DNA from: a virus
Lineage: Duplodnaviria; Heunggongvirae; Uroviricota; Caudoviricetes
Length of the DNA stretch: 15,457 nucleotides
IMG/VR virus record: IMGVR_UViG_3300029456_000117
Direction: 5' to 3' (one strand)
Within the stretch, counting starts at the first letter, position 1; each line of letters begins with the position of its first letter. Below the pieces are notes generated by a model. That model ran no database searches. It was not told the origin of the DNA and worked only from the letters and a program-made list of their open reading frames with translations. The translations under genes and the position numbers were made by a program. Shown here one piece after another: positions 1-10,598 of this stretch.

Positions 1-370
1 CTTTTCTTGCACCATATATACAATTACTGATTTCTTTTCCTATGAACGGATAGCCATATTTCTCAATTACTTTCCGAAATGTCAGTTTTGGTTTTATCCA
101 ATCCACATTTTCAAAAGTCTTAACAAACTCTCTTATCTCTGGATATTCAAGGCCTGTATCTATGAACATTGCCTTAATGTTGGGGTACAGTTTTCTCGCA
201 ATATCAAGAAGAACTGTACTGTCTTTTCCACCAGAGAAAGAGATATACACACCATCCTCTCCGTACTCATCTACCCACTCCCTGATTCTCCGCTGTGTCA
301 TGCTGATTTTTGCATTAAGCGGCAAGGACTGCATCTGGTAGAGGTCGGATATAACGTGTTTGTTACTCAC
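1..370 (-). CDS. PAPS-reductase-family (PP-loop) phage protein, 5' part (runs off window)
   Basis: Not in ORF track; hand-translated from GTG 370 with RBS AAAGGAG: MSNKHVISDLYQMQSLPLNAKISMTQRRIREWVDEYGEDGVYISFSGGKDSTVLLDIARKLYPNIKAMFIDTGLEYPEIREFV... Contains the SGGKDS PP-loop and DTGLE motif. Confidence 0.88.
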   Translation of the reverse strand, partial: MSNKHVISDLYQMQSLPLNAKISMTQRRIREWVDEYGEDGVYISFSGGKDSTVLLDIARKLYPNIKAMFIDTGLEYPEIREFVKTFENVDWIKPKLTFRKVIEKYGYPFIGKEISNCIYGARK

Positions 371-923: not shown

Positions 924-1259
924 CTATTTCTTTACCTTGCAGTCTCTATATACATCCTCTTTTCCGATGAATAACTGCCCTAAGATTGCAACCAGAACAT
1001 TTACCACGATACTGTTTCCGGCCTGCTTATAAAGCTGTGTGTTACTATTTACTTTCTCCGCCTTATGGAAATCTGCATCTGAGAAATCCATCAGCCGCCA
1101 GCACTCTTTTGGAGTGAGCTTTCTTATGCGGTACTCTGTGCAAACCTTTGAGTTCGCATCTCCATGCGTTCCGGCGGTCAACGTTGGAGAATTGCCATTA
1201 TCAGAATAAACAGATCCGCATTGACTTCCCTCGTTGGAAATCTGCCCTACTTTTGCCAT
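924..1259 (-). CDS. C5 DNA methyltransferase C-terminal subunit: TRD-like module T10 + motifs IX and X
   Basis: RBS AAGGAG + ATG 1259. GSVYSDNGNSPTLTAG (TRD-like), RIRKLTPKECWRLMDF (motif IX), LYKQAGNSIVVNV (motif X). Confidence 0.88.
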   Translation of the reverse strand: MAKVGQISNEGSQCGSVYSDNGNSPTLTAGTHGDANSKVCTEYRIRKLTPKECWRLMDFSDADFHKAEKVNSNTQLYKQAGNSIVVNVLVAILGQLFIGKEDVYRDCKVKK

Positions 1260-1287
1260 TTCTGTACTCCTTTCCGCGATATTGTCA

Positions 1288-1512
1288 CTATGCTGCATAC
1301 CGTCCTGCCCCCCCCCCCCGAACAATTTTCTCAATACGGCAAATCCCCATGCTTTGGGACGTAAGTGTAGGGCATACATGACCGCCGCCTTGCACTCTTC
1401 CTCGCCGTAATTTACTTGTCGGGTATGAGAAATCTGCAACTCCGCCAATCTCACATTCGATATAACCTTTCTGTGTTGCCTGCCGGATGCCTACATACTC
1501 TCTATCCATCAT
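1288..1512 (-). CDS. Stand-alone MTase TRD-like module T9
   Basis: IRQATQKGYIECEIGGVADFSYPTSKLRRGRVQGGGHVCPTLTS, a motif typical of phage MTase variable regions. Ends just after the G12 tract. Confidence 0.7.
   Translation of the reverse strand: MMDREYVGIRQATQKGYIECEIGGVADFSYPTSKLRRGRVQGGGHVCPTLTSQSMGICRIEKIVRGGGAGRYAA
1308..1319 (-). repeat. G12 homopolymer (tract 5)
   Basis: C12 on +. G11 or G14 would fuse T9 in frame to the motif IX-X ORF. Confidence 0.9.
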
Positions 1513-1705
1513 CCACCGTCCTTATCTCTAAAACCAGATTGTCTTTTTGAACAGTTGTGAGGGTGTTGGATATGCCATCAGTTCTTGCTTCAAGTTGAGT
1601 CATATTGCCTCTTTTTTCTGAAATCTGGTGGCTTTCGTATAATTTTCTTATCCTTTTGCCGTATTCAGTTCTGACGCAACGGCATATCGCAAAGTCAATC
1701 CTCAT
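1502..1705 (-). CDS. Stand-alone MTase TRD-like module T8
   Basis: GGAG RBS + ATG overlapping the T7 end; ...LEARTDGISNTLTTVQKDNLVLEI. Confidence 0.7.
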   Translation of the reverse strand: MRIDFAICRCVRTEYGKRIRKLYESHQISEKRGNMTQLEARTDGISNTLTTVQKDNLVLEIRTVDDG

Positions 1706-1871
1706 TTACTCTTATCTCCAAAACATAGTTGTCTTTTTGGACGGAAGTAAGTGTATTGCACAACCCCTCTGAGTTTGGCTCTAACCGTTGTTCCGTTGGT
1801 GCGCCTGTGGTTCTGTCTGATGGATTGCTTGGGTTTCGCCCTCTGCTTGCAACAATGATTCTTTCAACCAC
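1695..1871 (-). CDS. MTase TRD-like module T7
   Basis: GGAGG + GTG 1871; IIVASRGRNP...EQRLEPNSEGLCNTLTSVQKDNYVLEI. In the present G9 state it is also in frame with the T6 N-half (ORF 1695..2030). Confidence 0.65.
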   Translation of the reverse strand: MVERIIVASRGRNPSNPSDRTTGAPTEQRLEPNSEGLCNTLTSVQKDNYVLEIRVNED

Positions 1872-2030
1872 GTTTTCGCCTCCGTCTCTGTTATTATGCA
1901 AGGTACAGTACCCCCCCCCACTCGTAATCGCCGGAGCTATGCCGCCGGTATCATACACTCGCCCTTGGTTTGGGTTCTCTCTCGTGGAAGTGGGGAGAAT
2001 ATTGCCTAACCTCTTAATCCCGGTCTGCAA
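1872..2030 (-). CDS. MTase TRD-like module T6 (currently read through into T7)
   Basis: TTG 2030; LGNI...NPNQGRVYDTGGIAPAITSGGG. The likely cognate ending TVPCII needs G8 or G11. Confidence 0.6.
1911..1919 (-). repeat. G9 homopolymer (tract 4)
   Basis: C9 on +, lies in the Gly loop of T6. Confidence 0.9.
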
Positions 2031-2054
2031 TATCTTCTTTCCTTTCCTTGATTT

Positions 2055-2207
2055 CTAATATCTTTGGTTCCAAATTGCCCCCCCCCCACAAGTGTTTAAG
2101 GTCGGGGCAATTCCGTCTACGGAATAAATTCTTCCGCTCTGAGGATTATCCCAGCTCTTTCCTACGGCGATATTCCCCAGTTGTATGCAGCGTACCTTAT
2201 TTGCCAT
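2055..2207 (-). CDS. MTase TRD-like module T5 (currently truncated by frameshift)
   Basis: Not in ORF track. GAGG + ATG 2207: MANKVRCIQLGNIAVGKSWDNPQSGRIYSVDGIAPTLNTCGGGAIWNQRY*. With G8 or G11 it ends ...CGGGNLEPKILEIKERKEDIADRD* (stop 2016-2014). Confidence 0.7.
   Translation of the reverse strand: MANKVRCIQLGNIAVGKSWDNPQSGRIYSVDGIAPTLNTCGGGAIWNQRY
2078..2087 (-). repeat. G10 homopolymer (tract 3)
   Basis: C10 on +, lies in the Gly loop of T5. Confidence 0.9.
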
Positions 2208-2208
2208 T

Positions 2209-2445
2209 TCATAGTTCCTCAATTACATATTTCAAATGTTTGTAGTCGCTCGCCAATAGGGTAGGGCATATCATTTTGTACAATGCTTTATTGTATGGGT
2301 CGTAGATTCCACAAGCACTTTCGGAGGATCTTTGTAGTCTGTTGCCCTTATCGCTTGGCAAATACCCCCCCGATAAAACTCGGACCCTGTCCTGGACTTC
2401 TTTTTCCGGGTTCAGTGAGCCGACTACGATTATTCTGTCTGCCAT
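2209..2445 (-). CDS. MTase TRD-like modules T3/T4 (frame-switch fusion)
   Basis: GGAGG + ATG 2445. With G7 it reads into T4 (IYDPYNKALYKMICPTLLASDYKHLKYV). With G6 or G9 it reads GICQAIRATDYKDPPKVLVE...* (stop 2273-2271). Confidence 0.68.
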   Translation of the reverse strand: MADRIIVVGSLNPEKEVQDRVRVLSGGYLPSDKGNRLQRSSESACGIYDPYNKALYKMICPTLLASDYKHLKYVIEEL

Positions 2446-2584
2446 TTACTTTTTCCTCCACTAAAACTTTCGGTGGATCTTTATAATCCGTTGCCGACAA
2501 TGCCACTGATATGCCATCCGGGGACATTATACGTCCTCTTTCTCCGCCTGTTCCCGTATGAGCCACAATCAATGGCCGGCTCAT
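2348..2584 (-). CDS. MTase TRD-like module T2
   Basis: ERGRIMSPDGISVALSATDYKDPPKVLVE; paralogous to T3 (32/39 nt identity, 2457-2495 vs 2308-2346). Confidence 0.65.
   Translation of the reverse strand: MSRPLIVAHTGTGGERGRIMSPDGISVALSATDYKDPPKVLVEEKVNGRQNNRSRLTEPGKRSPGQGPSFIGGVFAKR
2365..2371 (-). repeat. G7 homopolymer (tract 2)
   Basis: C7 on +, crossed by both the T2 and T3 reading frames. Confidence 0.85.
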
Positions 2585-2600
2585 GGTTCATCTGAGCTGT

Positions 2601-3122
2601 CTACTTCTGTAACACCGCATCCCAATGATGCCTGTCTACTGAGCCTCTGCCCCCCCCCCTAACGGTTTTTGAGATGCCATCTAACTGGCCGCTCTCTTGT
2701 AAGTCCTTGATGAGTTTCTGCGCCTTTTCGGAGTTGATATAATACTTTTCGTCTACCTCGTCCTCCAAATAATCTTTCATTGTCTTATCCAGTGGAACCG
2801 GCTGCGGAAATTTGTAATTATAATCTCCCAGAATAGATACCATGAAGCATCGCTCTCTGTTCTGCGCCACGCCGTAGTCCTTTGCATTGAGAATCTGCGT
2901 ATAACACTTATATCCCTTGCTTTCAAGGAAGCTGCACCAGCTATGAAAATCATCTATGTTGTCCGCACTAATAACCTGTGGCACGTTCTCCATGAGAAGT
3001 ATCTGGGGAAGATTTTCTGTCTCATTCAGAAGTCTTTCAACTTCCCACAGTAACCCGGAACGTGTTCCTGATCCTTTTTTCATTCCTCGCATCTTTCCGG
3101 CGAGTGATAAGTCCTGGCAAGG
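2601..3122 (-). CDS. C5 DNA methyltransferase core: motifs IV-VIII + TRD-like module T1
   Basis: Frame open from PCQDLSLAG (3122); first ATG only at 3092. GTRSGLLWEVER, LLMENV (VI), LNAKDYGVAQNRERCF (VII-VIII), GISKTVRGGGRGS (T1). Confidence 0.88.
   Translation of the reverse strand, partial: PCQDLSLAGKMRGMKKGSGTRSGLLWEVERLLNETENLPQILLMENVPQVISADNIDDFHSWCSFLESKGYKCYTQILNAKDYGVAQNRERCFMVSILGDYNYKFPQPVPLDKTMKDYLEDEVDEKYYINSEKAQKLIKDLQESGQLDGISKTVRGGGRGSVDRHHWDAVLQK
2650..2659 (-). repeat. G10 homopolymer (tract 1)
   Basis: C10 on +, lies in the Gly loop of T1. Confidence 0.9.
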
Positions 3123-3124
3123 TC

Positions 3125-3586
3125 TTATGGAAACGAATACGTCATAAGGTAGGTGTATCTGTCAGTATTCGTTATTGCCAGATCACCCCCCCTCATTGAG
3201 CAAATGTTGACAAGGTTGTGCGTGGCTTTTATGTTGTTGTAACATTCTCTGCGCCATGCGTCACTGTATGAATGACTCCTTATCTGCTCTTCCGTGAGAG
3301 GTTTCTTTCCATCCACGGATATTCCCAACTGAGTAAGTGCCTGTATAACATCCTCGGAACTCATTTCTGCGCTGTAATCAGTATCATCGTCCGCCATGTG
3401 AATAGCTTTGTATGATGCCGTGGCGTGCATTTCCCATTCAGACATAAGGTAATGTTCAAACGGTACGCCAAGATTACGGAGTGCCATCGCCTGGGAACCA
3501 ACCCCGGCAAACAATTCTATCAATCGCACCGGGTTGTCAGTCTTAAATGTTGGGTACATTAAATCAAACATTGAAATCTGATCCAC
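3125..3586 (-). CDS. C5 DNA methyltransferase N-terminal part: motifs I-III and start of IV
   Basis: AAGGAG + GTG 3586; RLIELFAGVGSQ (motif I, FxGxG), SEWE (II), HNLVNI (III). Ends LMTYSFP* directly before the catalytic Cys. Confidence 0.88.
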   Translation of the reverse strand: MDQISMFDLMYPTFKTDNPVRLIELFAGVGSQAMALRNLGVPFEHYLMSEWEMHATASYKAIHMADDDTDYSAEMSSEDVIQALTQLGISVDGKKPLTEEQIRSHSYSDAWRRECYNNIKATHNLVNICSMRGGDLAITNTDRYTYLMTYSFP

Positions 3587-4217
3587 TCGTTTTCTCCTTT
3601 CTTTGATTTTTTATCATGCAAAATCTCGCATAATTAAGCTGCCGGAAGTAGTCATTATTCGCATTTTCCCACATTGCCGGTAAGGTACTCAGCCGTGTTT
3701 CATAACACTTATCACACACCTTTTTCCCTTTCATTGTTGGATTTTTGCCACATATATAGCAAATGCCGTAGTCCGGTCTCTCTGAACGTGACAAATCGCA
3801 TCGGTTTTTGTCTCTGTAATTTTTCAGATACGCCCTGCATCTCTGGCATAAACCACCATTCTGTGATTGATGTTTTCCGCATCTGGGGCATAGTCCGTTT
3901 TCGATGCGTGTCTGTTTTAATTGCCTTTTCCTCAGCCGATCTTTCTCTTTCTGTTCATCGGTTTTTCCTTTTTCCGAATAACTATCTTGAAATTGGCCCA
4001 AACACTCATAACATAGCTTTTTGTTAGGTTCTGCTGGATTTTTCCCACAATGAGTGCATATCCCAATCCTTTCATGGTATTTTCGGTTTTGCTTGCGTAA
4101 TTCAGAATTTCTTGCAGCACAGTCAGGACACATGGATCTTTCCGGCGTTGGGTTTTCCTTACCGCACTTCGGACACAATCCTCTTTCCCTCATCTCTTTG
4201 TATGATAATTTTCTCAA
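3564..4217 (-). CDS. Basic protein with four CxxC...CxxC zinc-ribbon repeats
   Basis: CPKCGKENP...CPDC, CTHCGKNP...CYEC, CPRCGKH...CQRC, CYICGKNP...CDKC, separated by Arg/Lys-rich segments. Start uncertain. Confidence 0.75.
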   Translation of the reverse strand: MRKLSYKEMRERGLCPKCGKENPTPERSMCPDCAARNSELRKQNRKYHERIGICTHCGKNPAEPNKKLCYECLGQFQDSYSEKGKTDEQKEKDRLRKRQLKQTRIENGLCPRCGKHQSQNGGLCQRCRAYLKNYRDKNRCDLSRSERPDYGICYICGKNPTMKGKKVCDKCYETRLSTLPAMWENANNDYFRQLNYARFCMIKNQRKEKTSGSDFNV

Positions 4218-4265: not shown

Positions 4266-4925
4266 CTATTTTCTACCGAACTTCTCATACATTTCATCCA
4301 GTCTCTTTCTGGTTTCGTTTGACATACCGGATGGTGGTTCGGTCTTTTCCTCCGGCACTTCAATTTTTTGCATTTCTATCTGTGGGTCTACTGCCTTTTC
4401 CATAAGTGCTGCGTGTTTCTTCCCCATATCGGCTATGAGCATCCTTACATTCTCCGGCAGACGTGCCTCTTCTTTCATCCGCTGCACCGAAGTCCGATAG
4501 TTCCTGATAAAGTGCGACTGTTCAATGGTTGCCACTTGGTCTGAATCCATCAACGCCCACTCTTTGAGGTTTGCCGCCGTTCCAACAGCTCTTTGGCACG
4601 CCTCCGGCAGTTTTGCAAATTCCTCTTCTGAGTTATAACCGGAGTTCCTTAACGCCCTCTGTACCAACGCCCATGCCTGCAGTTCGCTCATGCTTTCTTC
4701 CGCCGGAGCAATTATCTCCGTTGCTTTAGTGCGAATATCTGCGATGGTTGGTGGAAAACGTTCACTCGTCATGTACTTTTGTATCGCCAAATTTGCCTGC
4801 TCATACGGAAGATCTTGTAACAATCCATACCACACATCGAAAGCGTCTTTATCTGGTATGAATGTCGGCTGTGCGTAGACAGCTTTCATAGCTTTTACCA
4901 AAATCTTAAATTCTTCTCTTTCCAT
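4266..4925 (-). CDS. Replicative helicase loader/inhibitor (SPP1 G39P-like N-terminus)
   Basis: MEREEFKILVKAMKAVY...WYGLLQDLPYEQ...FPPTIADI pattern; position directly after the replisome organiser (TAATG overlap). Confidence 0.75.
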   Translation of the reverse strand: MEREEFKILVKAMKAVYAQPTFIPDKDAFDVWYGLLQDLPYEQANLAIQKYMTSERFPPTIADIRTKATEIIAPAEESMSELQAWALVQRALRNSGYNSEEEFAKLPEACQRAVGTAANLKEWALMDSDQVATIEQSHFIRNYRTSVQRMKEEARLPENVRMLIADMGKKHAALMEKAVDPQIEMQKIEVPEEKTEPPSGMSNETRKRLDEMYEKFGRK

Positions 4926-5755
4926 TACCAGCCATCCACATCCTTTACTCTGTTTCCAATGCGATCTCCGCTATTTCTGTATGCAGAAGATGATTGCAAT
5001 TTATCCCAAATAATGCCTTTCCATCCATTCGACATACATTCATCAATAAGATTGCATACGGCAGTATCTCCATAGACAGAGACCTTATTGGCAACCTGTT
5101 TTAACAACGACTTCATGCCCTGTTCCTTATATCCGTCTTTCCGTTCCGTCTTATACTTGAACCATTCGCGAAGTTTATCTGCCATTACATCAGAGATGGT
5201 GTACTCAGGGAGAAGCCTTTCAAAAATTGATTGGGTAGTTTCCCTCTTTCCCCCTTTTTTATTTTCTTTCTCTAACTCTTTCTCTAACTCTTTCTCTATG
5301 TTACCTTTTTGAACATTAACGTTACTCTCTGTTACACGTTCGTTACATTCAGTGTTTTCGGGTGTCTCAGTGGGTTTTGTCTTGTTTTTTTCTCTCTCCC
5401 GATACTCCCTAACCCTCTGTGCGGATGCCGATTCAGACCCAATCATTTTCAGAGATTTTGGTAAAAATAGTGTGCCGTCACTTTCCGTAACCACAAGCTG
5501 TAATTTTGAAAATTGTTGTAACGCTTGTGTAACAATCTGTAACGCAAAACCGGATGCTTCCGCCAACATTTCTGCGTCATACGGAATATCTTCGGAAAAT
5601 CGCAGTTTGCCCTCATGGTCGATTGACTCTGTAATCATCCATATATAGAACATAACCAAAAGATCGCCATTATCCTTTGCTCTAAGTATCTTGATATAGT
5701 GTTTTTCAAAGAAGTTCCGGGGCATTTTGAGCCAAAAATACTTTTTCTCAGCCAT
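4925..5755 (-). CDS. Phage replisome organiser / replication initiator
   Basis: N-terminal KKYFWLKMPRNFF...IPYDAEMLA; A-R-V-R-x-x-R linker; EKEL repeats; C-terminal GWKGI motif. Confidence 0.85.
   Translation of the reverse strand: MAEKKYFWLKMPRNFFEKHYIKILRAKDNGDLLVMFYIWMITESIDHEGKLRFSEDIPYDAEMLAEASGFALQIVTQALQQFSKLQLVVTESDGTLFLPKSLKMIGSESASAQRVREYREREKNKTKPTETPENTECNERVTESNVNVQKGNIEKELEKELEKENKKGGKRETTQSIFERLLPEYTISDVMADKLREWFKYKTERKDGYKEQGMKSLLKQVANKVSVYGDTAVCNLIDECMSNGWKGIIWDKLQSSSAYRNSGDRIGNRVKDVDGW
5267..5543. repeat. Putative phage replication origin repeats inside the initiator gene
   Basis: TTTCTCTAACTC x2 plus a partial copy (5267-5298); GTTAC at 5300, 5321, 5331, 5342; oppositely oriented TGTAAC at 5517, 5528, 5538. 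Confidence 0.6.
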
Positions 5756-6158: not shown

Positions 6159-6378
6159 CCCTAAGTCCTCCTTTCTTTCATTATAGGTGGAGCCGCCGGA
6201 ATGACGGCTCCTGGGTAATTTAACAAAAGATCCTTGTCAGGGGTTTATACCATTCAACTAATCGAATTTCTTAAAAGGAGGTAAACCGTTTGTGTGTTCT
6301 GCGGCTTTCGTGACATATTTTCCTCAGAGACCAATCTTAGGAGATAATTGCAGAAACATATTTACGGGTTACGATTAT

Positions 6379-7110
6379 TTAAGAAATCACAAAGATGTTT
6401 GATACATCCGCAAGTTCTTTTTCGAGATACGCCTTAATGTTGGCTTTCGCCTCATTCTTCCATGCGCCTCCATCTGCCTCAAATAAGGCACAGGTAACGC
6501 CATAACGATCATTGTCCTTTACTCTGAAAATGAAGTTGCTCATAGGCTGTGCAACTTCTGTAAAGGTTCTGTACGGCATCAGGCGGCAAGGACTCGGAAC
6601 TTCGACTTCCTGCAGAGAGGCAACGCCTTTCTTGATTGCTGCTTTCTGCCCTACTCCGGTGTCTCCGTATTCTGCAACAGTGCCGGCCTTAACATTTCCG
6701 GCGAACTGTAAGATGATCGGCTTATCATTTGCATCAGCATCCTCATTTAAGAACTTGGACTGCACACCGATAACAAACTCTTCGTTCCCAATGAACTGAC
6801 CGAATGAAAACTCCGGGATCTCTGCTTTGACAACTGCCAGTGTTTCTCTCTGACGGTCTGCATCCAAACTGGAAAACAGACGAACCTCGGTAGGAGATAC
6901 CACCTGGGCGATGTAATGACCGGTCTTGAAATCTGCTTTACTCTTTTTGATGAAATCCACAAGGCTGCTCAGATTACTCATCGTGATACTGGTTGCTCTG
7001 AGTTCCTTGCCGATCTGTGTCATATCTTTGTCTACATAGGTTCTTCCCTCAATTTCCTCAATATGGGGAGCATCGAGAGAAAGAATTTTCTCAATAGCTG
7101 CTTTTAACAT
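6379..7110 (-). CDS. Conserved phage hypothetical protein
   Basis: 243 aa, GGAGG RBS; LMPYRTFTEV...FIFRV...ALFEADGGAWK. From recall, this type usually pairs with the 7680-8159 type gene. Confidence 0.75.
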   Translation of the reverse strand: MLKAAIEKILSLDAPHIEEIEGRTYVDKDMTQIGKELRATSITMSNLSSLVDFIKKSKADFKTGHYIAQVVSPTEVRLFSSLDADRQRETLAVVKAEIPEFSFGQFIGNEEFVIGVQSKFLNEDADANDKPIILQFAGNVKAGTVAEYGDTGVGQKAAIKKGVASLQEVEVPSPCRLMPYRTFTEVAQPMSNFIFRVKDNDRYGVTCALFEADGGAWKNEAKANIKAYLEKELADVSNIFVIS

Positions 7111-10238: not shown

Positions 10239-10598
10239 CTATCGTCTGTACCCCCCCCCGAAAAGGTTCTTCAAAAAATCCGCAAAACCATCTTCGGAGT
10301 CGGGTTTAACTTTGACGGTATCGAAACCAAATTTCTTTTTCATCAGATCAGTGAGCTTTATTGTCTGCTCAGACATAATATCTTTGATGAGGTTGCTGGT
10401 TTCCTCCGCCCACTCCATTCCACCGTCAATATCTTCGAGAAATGCCTTATTTCCAGAAGAACTGCAACTGATTGATGTAGGCGTTACGGTCACTTCACAA
10501 GTGAATGGATGGATTTCAATATCTTTCGTATCATCCATAATGTGTTTGAGTGCCATCATTGCCATAAGTGCGTCAAAGTTATCATTCTTTCCTGCCAT
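10239..10598 (-). CDS. Hypothetical phage protein
   Basis: 119 aa, GGAGG RBS; G9 tract (10251-10259) near the C-terminus. Confidence 0.7.
   Translation of the reverse strand: MAGKNDNFDALMAMMALKHIMDDTKDIEIHPFTCEVTVTPTSISCSSSGNKAFLEDIDGGMEWAEETSNLIKDIMSEQTIKLTDLMKKKFGFDTVKVKPDSEDGFADFLKNLFGGGYRR

Follow-up and report, generated by a model that had tools for sequence, protein, structure and literature searches.

The window analysed here is a stretch of 15,457 nucleotides from a virus of the Caudoviricetes (IMG/VR record IMGVR_UViG_3300029456_000117), which carries, over 924-3586 on the minus strand, one C5 DNA methyltransferase gene cut into about ten reading frames, with its motifs spread over three frames. 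The locus, part of a common gut prophage, holds ten modules resembling target-recognition domains (TRDs) and six poly-G runs. Judging from sequence comparisons, we consider the chances somewhat better than even that it encodes a fragmented, phase-variable, multi-TRD prophage methyltransferase that is functional as assembled pieces. The system combines three known ideas, namely multispecific TRD arrays, split C5 methyltransferases and repeat switches.

Matches to the Pfam family PF00145 fall on three pieces of the gene (3125-3586, E 7e-6; 2601-3092, E 1e-28; 924-1454, E 1e-12), the first of which covers family positions 2-49. Read 5' to 3', an N-terminal open reading frame (ORF) with motif I is followed by a core frame ending in the first module, T1, then by T2-T9 in alternating frames and finally by a closing ORF with T10 and motifs IX and X. 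Motifs I (ELFAGVGS), VI (LLMENVPQV), VIII (QNRERCF), IX (RKLTPKECWRLMDF) and X (QAGNSIVVNV) are present. An earlier note, made from the letters of the DNA alone, had listed ten TRD-like cores (GISKTV, GISVAL, GICQAI, MICPTL, GIAPTL, GIAPAI, GLCNTL, GISNTL, HVCPTL and GNSPTL), and all ten were found on the minus strand, in three alternating frames bounded by motif VIII and motif IX. The pieces are as follows.

3125-3586, minus strand: N-terminal ORF, GTG start, 153 amino acids (aa), motif I ELFAGVGS; ends in TYSFP, then TAA; PF00145 E 7e-6
2601-3122, minus strand: core frame, PCQDLS (motif IV), ENV (VI), QNRER (VIII) and T1 (GISKTV); PF00145 E 1e-28
2581-2649, minus strand: T1 tail frame, whose TGA stop overlaps the T2 ATG (ATGA)
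2348-2584, minus strand: T2 ORF (GISVAL), which crosses the T3 start out of frame and reaches run 3; omega 0-0.13
2209-2445, minus strand: T3 head and T4 ORF, MADRIIVVG... joined to MICPTL, as read with 7 G
2271-2364, minus strand: T3 core frame (GICQAIRATDYKDPPKVLVE), with no start codon joined in the window; its stop overlaps the ATG at 2274
2055-2222, minus strand: T5 ORF (GRIYSVDGIAPTLNTCGGG), ATG at 2207; aligns to M.HhaI residues 228-258
2014-2077, minus strand: T5 tail frame (NLEPKILEIKERKEDIADRD, then stop)
1695-2030, minus strand: T6 (GIAPAI) and T7 (GLCNTL) ORF, joined by 9 G, with T7 having its own GTG at 1871
1502-1705, minus strand: T8 ORF (GISNTL), 67 aa, a free-standing TRD mini-protein
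1288-1512, minus strand: T9 ORF (HVCPTL), ending past run 6
924-1259, minus strand: closing ORF, ATG at 1259; T10 (GNSPTL), motif IX (RKLTPKECWRLMDF) and motif X (QAGNSIVVNV); PF00145 E 1e-12

The start codons named in the earlier note are real, each of them carrying a Shine-Dalgarno-like sequence, which lies 7-9 nt ahead of the ATG at 2445, the ATG at 2207, the TTG at 2030, the GTG at 1871 and the ATGs at 1705, 1512 and 1259. The tight stop/start overlaps were likewise seen (ATGA for T1 tail/T2 and T3/T4, TGAAATG for T4/T5 and ATGAGGATTGA for T7/T8) and, as sequences, resemble those of coupled operons. The T1 tail is joined to the core in four relatives (L017, L028, L048 and L051). An alternative genetic code was considered and rejected, as the breaks are frame shifts and not in-frame stops, and readthrough of the TAA in motif IV would lead into unrelated sequence. 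The break between T8 and T9 (1502-1521) looks like an imperfect 7-nt tandem duplication (GGTGGAT GATGGAT) that yields the T8 stop and the ATG ATG of T9; cluster P0060 (110 member sequences) is without this duplication, and there T8 and T9 are fused.

The breaks are conserved. Across 19 full-length relatives (about 98% identity), the six G runs are the only places with frame-shifting indels; apart from these there is one in-frame 3-nt change, and length differences at the final codons and the stop set L029, L032 and L037 apart. Contigs from four further sequencing runs confine their indels to the same six places. Among 57 relatives tabulated, no module is joined across a junction that lacks a G run, and at the G runs joining follows run length. 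Viral contigs yielded 319 relatives in a scan, and the best 80 served for counts of viral loci: no ORF combines motifs I and X in any of the 68 loci showing both (motif X being absent from the available stretch in the other 12 of 80), while motifs I and IV stand in one ORF in 29/80. In isolate and metagenome-assembled genomes, motifs IV and X share an ORF in 0/22 loci whose core is at least 55% identical to that of the window, against 34/58 more distant loci, and the split is therefore a trait of the subfamily. The earlier note had named a continuous ORF in close homologues as a reason to drop its reading; single-ORF relatives with a core of at least 55% identity numbered zero. Two-ORF forms with overlaps also occur among relatives, for example L069 (347 + 176 aa), with an M.AquI-like break in the variable region. 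Even where boundary codons have changed, they have done so in kind: the T10 start is ATG in 38 relatives and GTG in 14, and the T8 stop is TAG in 37 and TAA in 13. Starts, stops and the frame changes outside G runs are thus kept in relatives, which answers the proposed check of ORF boundaries, and on these alignments the breaks are neither assembly errors nor fresh decay.

Module content does vary. T8 is missing in 21/57 relatives, a loss that is due to recombination between the alike ends of T7 and T8, and 14 relatives (L002, at 6218-6402, and L006, L011, L017, L022, L026, L027, L035, L038, L042, L047, L048, L049 and L051) have one TRD module more (RFFKDGCCGTLRTIDGCGDK), which stands between T6 and T7 and bears a 7-G run of its own.

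By comparison of the window with eight relatives of 72-88% identity, the ratio of non-synonymous to synonymous substitution rates (omega) is 0.01-0.3 for each piece when its own frame is read; the other two frames mostly give values above 1, and synonymous divergence (dS) is 0.5-2. A second count was made in a clade of 48 close relatives that carry the motif IV insertion described below, using only aligned pieces of at least 93% identity and leaving aside L011, L017, L028 and L048, which are without the insertion, and L047 (88% overall). Here the pieces hold 325 synonymous, 104 non-synonymous and 3 stop variants in their own frames, against 55/360/15 and 51/350/30 in the other two; singleton variants number 136/56/1 in the same order. 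Rare isolated variants, counted after dropping L081 (identical to L083 in the region), are 10 synonymous to 0 non-synonymous in the N-terminal piece and 4 to 2 in the core. On this codon-level evidence every piece is under purifying selection in its own frame.

The catalytic core is itself divided, which the earlier note missed: there is an 8-nt insertion (TAAGACCT, 3120-3127, minus strand) that splits motif IV between CCA (Pro) and TGC (Cys). The inserted letters supply a stop codon and another Pro codon with GA between the two, and motifs I and IV are not in one frame, TYSFP being followed by TAA and then by PCQDLS in the -1 frame. Relatives with an unbroken motif IV have TTT CCN TGY CAR (F P C Q) at this place, whereas the sequence in the window and in 49 other carriers is TTT CCA TAA GA CCT TGC; of 50 contigs bearing the flanks, 49 have the identical insertion, 1 is unrelated and none has the allele without the insertion. 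The first ATG of the core frame, at 3092, lies downstream of the catalytic Cys. Since motif IV is broken and no start codon lies behind the insertion, an active enzyme would need a recoding step. The common variants just past the insertion (TGC/TGT and GAC/GAT) are synonymous in the PCQ frame only, and there are 38 distinct haplotypes of the N-terminal piece plus core among 49 sequences. By these alignments the gap in the catalytic motif is fixed, with both flanks still constrained.

Three simpler ways of reading through motif IV were tried and rejected. A non-AUG start before PCQ would have to use ATA codons, which are the only candidates and have no Shine-Dalgarno sequence; 6, 8 or 9 G at run 1 all lead to stops ahead of PCQ; and a -1 frameshift would act without a slippery site and leave SIR in the product between F and PCQ. 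The insertion brings in CATAAG, reverse-complementary to a CTTATG 13 nt upstream (window 3128-3151), and so creates a 6-bp hairpin including the take-off codon of a possible ribosomal hop; it may have arisen as a templated insertion.

The window has 7 runs of at least 7 G, and the methyltransferase gene holds 6 of these. Overlapping 7-mer matches number 22, compared with 1.0 expected, and 0/200 shuffles reached 22. The six runs are the following.

3186-3192, minus strand: run 1, 7 G, coding RGG; 8 G give an immediate stop (MRGG, then stop)
2650-2659, minus strand: run 2, 10 G, past T1; with 8 or 11 G the core continues into a conserved tail that begins QRLSRQASLGCG
2365-2371, minus strand: run 3, 7 G; overlapping frames are switched three ways
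2078-2087, minus strand: run 4, 10 G; with 8 G, T5 gains the tail NLEPKILEIKE
1911-1919, minus strand: run 5, 9 G, joining T6 to T7
1308-1319, minus strand: run 6, 12 G; at 8 or 11 G, T9 reads on into T10 and motifs IX-X

The G runs encode the GGG after the TL motif of the modules. At run 3, 7 G join the T3 head to T4, 8 G join T2 to the T3 core, and 9 G join the T3 head to the T3 core and T2 to T4. Lengths of 6-12 G are found across relatives and, in runs 2-6, cover all three residues modulo 3, while run 1 is 7 G and in frame in 42/48 clade members (8 G in 5/48, 9 G in 1/48). Among the 34 relatives with all six runs readable there are 32 distinct length vectors and 17 ON/OFF patterns. Two marks of phase variation are seen, namely a frame-shifting repeat in coding sequence and length changes other than multiples of three between near-identical genomes. 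As length differences are nearly universal (32/34), the G runs are most likely slippage switches for single modules, insofar as sequence can tell. The earlier note had argued that changes in G-tract length cannot produce one ORF, and this stands, all three frames past 2650-2659 closing by 2581; the tracts are nevertheless not bystanders, given that their variable lengths decide which module halves join. For run 5, an ON state of 8 G (tail TVPCIITE) is doubtful, the tail being unconstrained (2 synonymous, 5 non-synonymous and 2 stop variants); judged by P0063 and P0072, the native state may instead be 9 G, with T6 and T7 joined.

Further repeats were noticed in the window and in relatives. A seventh poly-G run (9 G, 10251-10259, minus strand) lies near the 3' end of a 119-aa ORF (10239-10598) without a PHROG match and may be another slippage switch. 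In the nearest genome (G001), locus L163 (G001:C2:94400-106400) has runs of 8, 8 and 10 G at 2504-2511, 5234-5241 and 6208-6217, on the same strand as the methyltransferase and within about 6 kb downstream of it. In L066-L073 and L079, which are more distant relatives, the peptide FTYLLTYSF just before motif IV comes from a (TTAC)4-5 repeat at locus position ~4880-4910; L073 and L079 are one TTAC unit short, which separates motif I from motif IV and makes a tetranucleotide switch of the whole enzyme.

The modules recur in relatives both free and fused. T5 aligned to the TRD of M.HhaI (residues 228-258, ending in GERIYSTRGIAITLSAYGGG), a weak match (E 0.7) that is correctly placed. Stand-alone proteins related to T8 form 59 clusters of 36-118 aa, and 27 aligned free T8-like proteins (46-90% identity) start a few codons ahead of AILR.VRTEYGK and end just past DNLVLEI. 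A T8-type TRD is also found within 211 longer proteins, and modules of the window recur in single-chain PF00145 proteins. For the prediction of a three-chain fold, the core was represented by residues 1-296 of the L028 protein, which is intact, with T1 left off, and the closing piece by residues 38-111 of the window's closing ORF, its motif IX-X end; the T8 peptide was the partner, and each chain was supplied as an alignment. T8 docked with an ipSAE (interaction prediction score from aligned errors) of 0.77, compared with 0.02 for the best control, in a calibration where the docking mark is reached by 116/157 solved complexes and 2/215 mismatched pairs; the three runs agreed in at least 96% of contacts, and the predicted local distance difference test value of the partner was at least 76. 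In the predicted complex, T8 residues 57-62 (LVLEIR) pair with EYRIRKL ahead of motif IX, and I45 and S46 of GISNTL contact core residues 238-240 in the motif VIII region. In this model T8 is placed at the canonical TRD position between the core and the closing piece, which is the outcome that a proposed structure prediction of core, C-terminal ORF and TRD peptide had been meant to probe.

Taken together, we propose that the mini-ORF pieces would be translated separately and assemble into one enzyme, in which the catalytic piece (motifs I-VIII and T1) may pair with the closing piece (T10 and motifs IX-X), as in M.AquI. These two would take up free TRD peptides, T8 for example, between them, the C-terminal strand of the TRD (LVLEIR) pairing with the strand before motif IX and the TL loop facing motif VIII. 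A G run lies within the GGG after a TL motif or behind it and would decide whether that module keeps its docking end or joins its neighbour, and slipping of the runs would change the set of target sequences and give a phage population with many methylation patterns. The use is probably bet-hedging against host restriction systems. In this lineage, ribosomes would in addition hop from CCA over UAA-GA to CCU, the peptidyl-tRNA-Pro leaving CCA with UAA in the A site, and so join TYSFP to CQDLS. A stricter form of the proposal, with a single core made by a hop over the 8-nt gap and free TRD mini-proteins that dock in turn and are individually switched by poly-G, we regard as possible and rather unlikely. 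If true, the core with its TRD kit and hop would give a combinatorial methylome, heritable yet reversible, and a natural short-range bypass in a bacterial virus.

A number of observations weigh against assembly of switched pieces. The layout is untidy, T2 crossing T3 out of frame for about 30 codons and T3 and T4 overlapping in two frames. The assumed ON states are not enriched (run 2, 16/48; run 3, 18/48; run 4, 10/44; run 5, 7/47; run 6, 7/43). Fused forms of the modules exist in relatives: P0063 is a 513-aa closing piece with many TRDs in one frame, P0072 (563 aa) reads from motif IV to X in a single frame, P0065 has T8, T9, T10 and motifs IX-X in one ORF, and P0060 fuses T8 to T9 without the 7 nt; chain breaks at module borders are therefore tolerated and not obligatory. 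Much of the synonymous excess sits in clustered variants (130 synonymous, 45 non-synonymous), which may have been imported by recombination, and the rare isolated variants of the TRD modules and closing piece (5 synonymous, 11 non-synonymous, 1 stop) are near the neutral expectation of about 22% synonymous. The proposed per-module test of selection came out mixed, with omega of 0.01-0.3 in the own frames on one side and near-neutral rare module variants (5/11 and 1 stop) on the other. The docking result may owe its pass to likeness with solved single-chain C5 methyltransferases, and for that reason it shows compatibility, not binding. At motif IV, no ATG, GTG or TTG was found before the catalytic Cys; the RNA fold at the insertion is unremarkable against shuffles (z -0.70); and a 140-nt stretch free of polymorphism around run 1 and the insertion may be a sign that the insertion is young. 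A hop from CCA to CCU, yielding the junction TYSFPCQDLSLAGK, would explain the kept flanks; the site reads CCA UAA GA CCU UGC, and its putative take-off and landing Pro codons are synonymous and not identical. Of the multi-subunit enzyme with exchangeable TRD peptides that had been suggested, a conserved and selected layout with predicted docking of T8 remains, and the fused forms in relatives show that the modules can exist without being split.

Among the other explanations, the end pieces alone may work as an M.AquI-like pair with T1 and/or T10, the middle mini-ORFs being a silent or rarely used reservoir of cassettes. We would give this a small but real share of the probability. Modules are gained and lost between near-identical phages (T8 absent in 21/57, an extra module in 14), G-run states join neighbours in many ways, rare variants of the modules look relaxed and relatives often have two ORFs only, all of which is what a reservoir would look like; against this, the middle ORFs retain starts, Shine-Dalgarno sequences and stops, with start-to-start and stop-to-stop substitutions, their own frames show omega values of 0.01-0.2 with dS at 0.5-2, and free T8-like proteins are conserved down to 46% identity, with T8 predicted to dock. 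It is improbable, to a degree beyond that, that the gene is dying, the 8-nt insertion having killed the enzyme and the remainder being recent wreckage kept alike by descent and recombination. The stop in motif IV with no start codon ahead of the Cys, the polymorphism-free island that could mark a young event, the relaxed rare variants of the TRDs, including a stop in T8 of L029, and the lack of enrichment of ON states would all suit such decay. However, the insertion is identical in 49 carriers despite their 38 haplotypes of N-terminal piece and core, the rare isolated variants of these two pieces are 14 synonymous to 2 non-synonymous, the 19 full-length relatives are free of indels outside G runs bar the one in-frame 3-nt change, run 1 is in frame in 42/48, and the remaining breaks predate the insertion, being common to relatives with an intact motif IV.

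Ribosomal frameshifting or hopping at every junction, giving one long multispecific polypeptide like M.SPRI, is very improbable. Single-chain arrays of the same modules do exist in relatives (P0063 with 513 aa and P0072 with 563 aa), and there is a matched codon pair at motif IV and a GAT...GAT at the T8/T9 junction, but the nine junctions are of mixed +1 and -1 direction without slippery heptamers, every junction combines a nearby stop with a start codon and its Shine-Dalgarno sequence, as coupled operons do, and the efficiencies would multiply to near zero. That the breaks are sequencing or assembly errors at homopolymers has a negligible chance: homopolymer lengths are error-prone and part of the 6-12 G spread may be error, but dozens of independently assembled sequences and the genome of a cultured isolate agree exactly at the junctions that have no G run, and the remaining genes of the window are intact.

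The stretch is the early region of a temperate phage, with genes for an integrase, a CI-like repressor, RecT and an exonuclease, a replisome organizer and RusA, all intact. A megablast of the region against phage GenBank records gave no match, and a second PF00145 gene was sought in the nearest genome (G001) and the virus record (G002), both used as genome references, and was found in neither. The closest named genome with the prophage is that of the cultured isolate Diplocloster hominis CSJ-3. A 217-aa CxxC-rich protein without a PHROG match is encoded at 3564-4217 on the minus strand, overlapping the methyltransferase start by 23 nt, and its gene is kept ahead of the methyltransferase in relatives L051, L052 and L058. 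Downstream of the methyltransferase lies a phosphoadenosine-phosphosulfate reductase-like gene (phrog_424, 2-370, minus strand), truncated by the end of the stretch; such genes are frequent companions of phage DNA-modification genes.

If free TRD peptides act in trans, DNA recognition in C5 methyltransferases would have a modularity beyond that of any enzyme studied and could be supplied as exchangeable subunits of 55-110 aa. This would bear on how TRDs are positioned in multispecific enzymes, for which we know of no solved structure, and on the engineering of targeted methylation. Should every G run control one specificity, one prophage would have dozens of methylation states at its disposal, a phage counterpart of bacterial phasevarions that would add a layer to the restriction arms race in the gut. 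The fixed 8-nt gap with its constrained flanks is a concrete candidate for a translational bypass over a short distance in nature. With the prophage present in the genome of a cultured isolate, D. hominis CSJ-3, the system looks tractable.

The earlier note knew of no described system with this layout, and full-text literature searches agreed, finding no paper on TRD mini-ORFs with G-run switches. The C5 methyltransferases of temperate Bacillus phages (M.SPRI, M.Phi3TI, M.Rho11sI and that of SPbeta) are multispecific, with several tandem TRDs between motifs VIII and IX, each of which is thought to confer one specificity and to shield the phage from several host restriction enzymes; to our knowledge, no repeat switches have been described in them. 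The window shares with these enzymes the several tandem TRDs between motifs VIII and IX of a phage-borne enzyme. Unlike them, with all TRDs in one polypeptide, it has ten modules on separate or overlapping ORFs and a core in pieces, and five of its ten modules carry poly-G runs. Slippage of repeats in coding sequence switches a methyltransferase or its specificity in the Type III mod phasevarions and Type I hsdS. Those systems are cellular, mostly with one repeat per gene, and switch the whole enzyme or swap hsdS halves, whereas here six runs lie in one phage gene, each acting, on our reading, on one module.

Among natural split enzymes, the part of PMC3404938 that treats them describes M.AquI as an enzyme whose break falls in the variable region, the larger piece having motifs I-VIII, the smaller one the remaining variable region and motifs IX-X, and both being active together, and M.EcoHK31I as a C5 methyltransferase needing a small separate polypeptide that supplies motif IX. 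As in M.AquI so described, motifs I-VIII and IX-X lie here on different ORFs with a break in the variable region; unlike that enzyme, with two pieces and one specificity, the gene of the window has about ten pieces, some of them without catalytic or closing motifs, and its small pieces carry TRDs where that of M.EcoHK31I supplies motif IX. In the cases summarised in the relevant part of PMC5009743, namely T4 gene 60, synthetic stop-hops between matched codons and Magnusiomyces mitochondria, a stop follows the take-off codon, a matching landing codon precedes the codon at which translation resumes, and bypass restores a conserved protein; few natural cases are known. Compared with the bypasses described there, the candidate hop would span a gap of only 5 nt and join synonymous codons (CCA/CCU), and no stimulatory signal was found in the local RNA fold; as in those cases, a stop comes after the putative take-off codon, and the putative landing codon, a Pro codon like the first, stands just ahead of the codon at which translation would resume.

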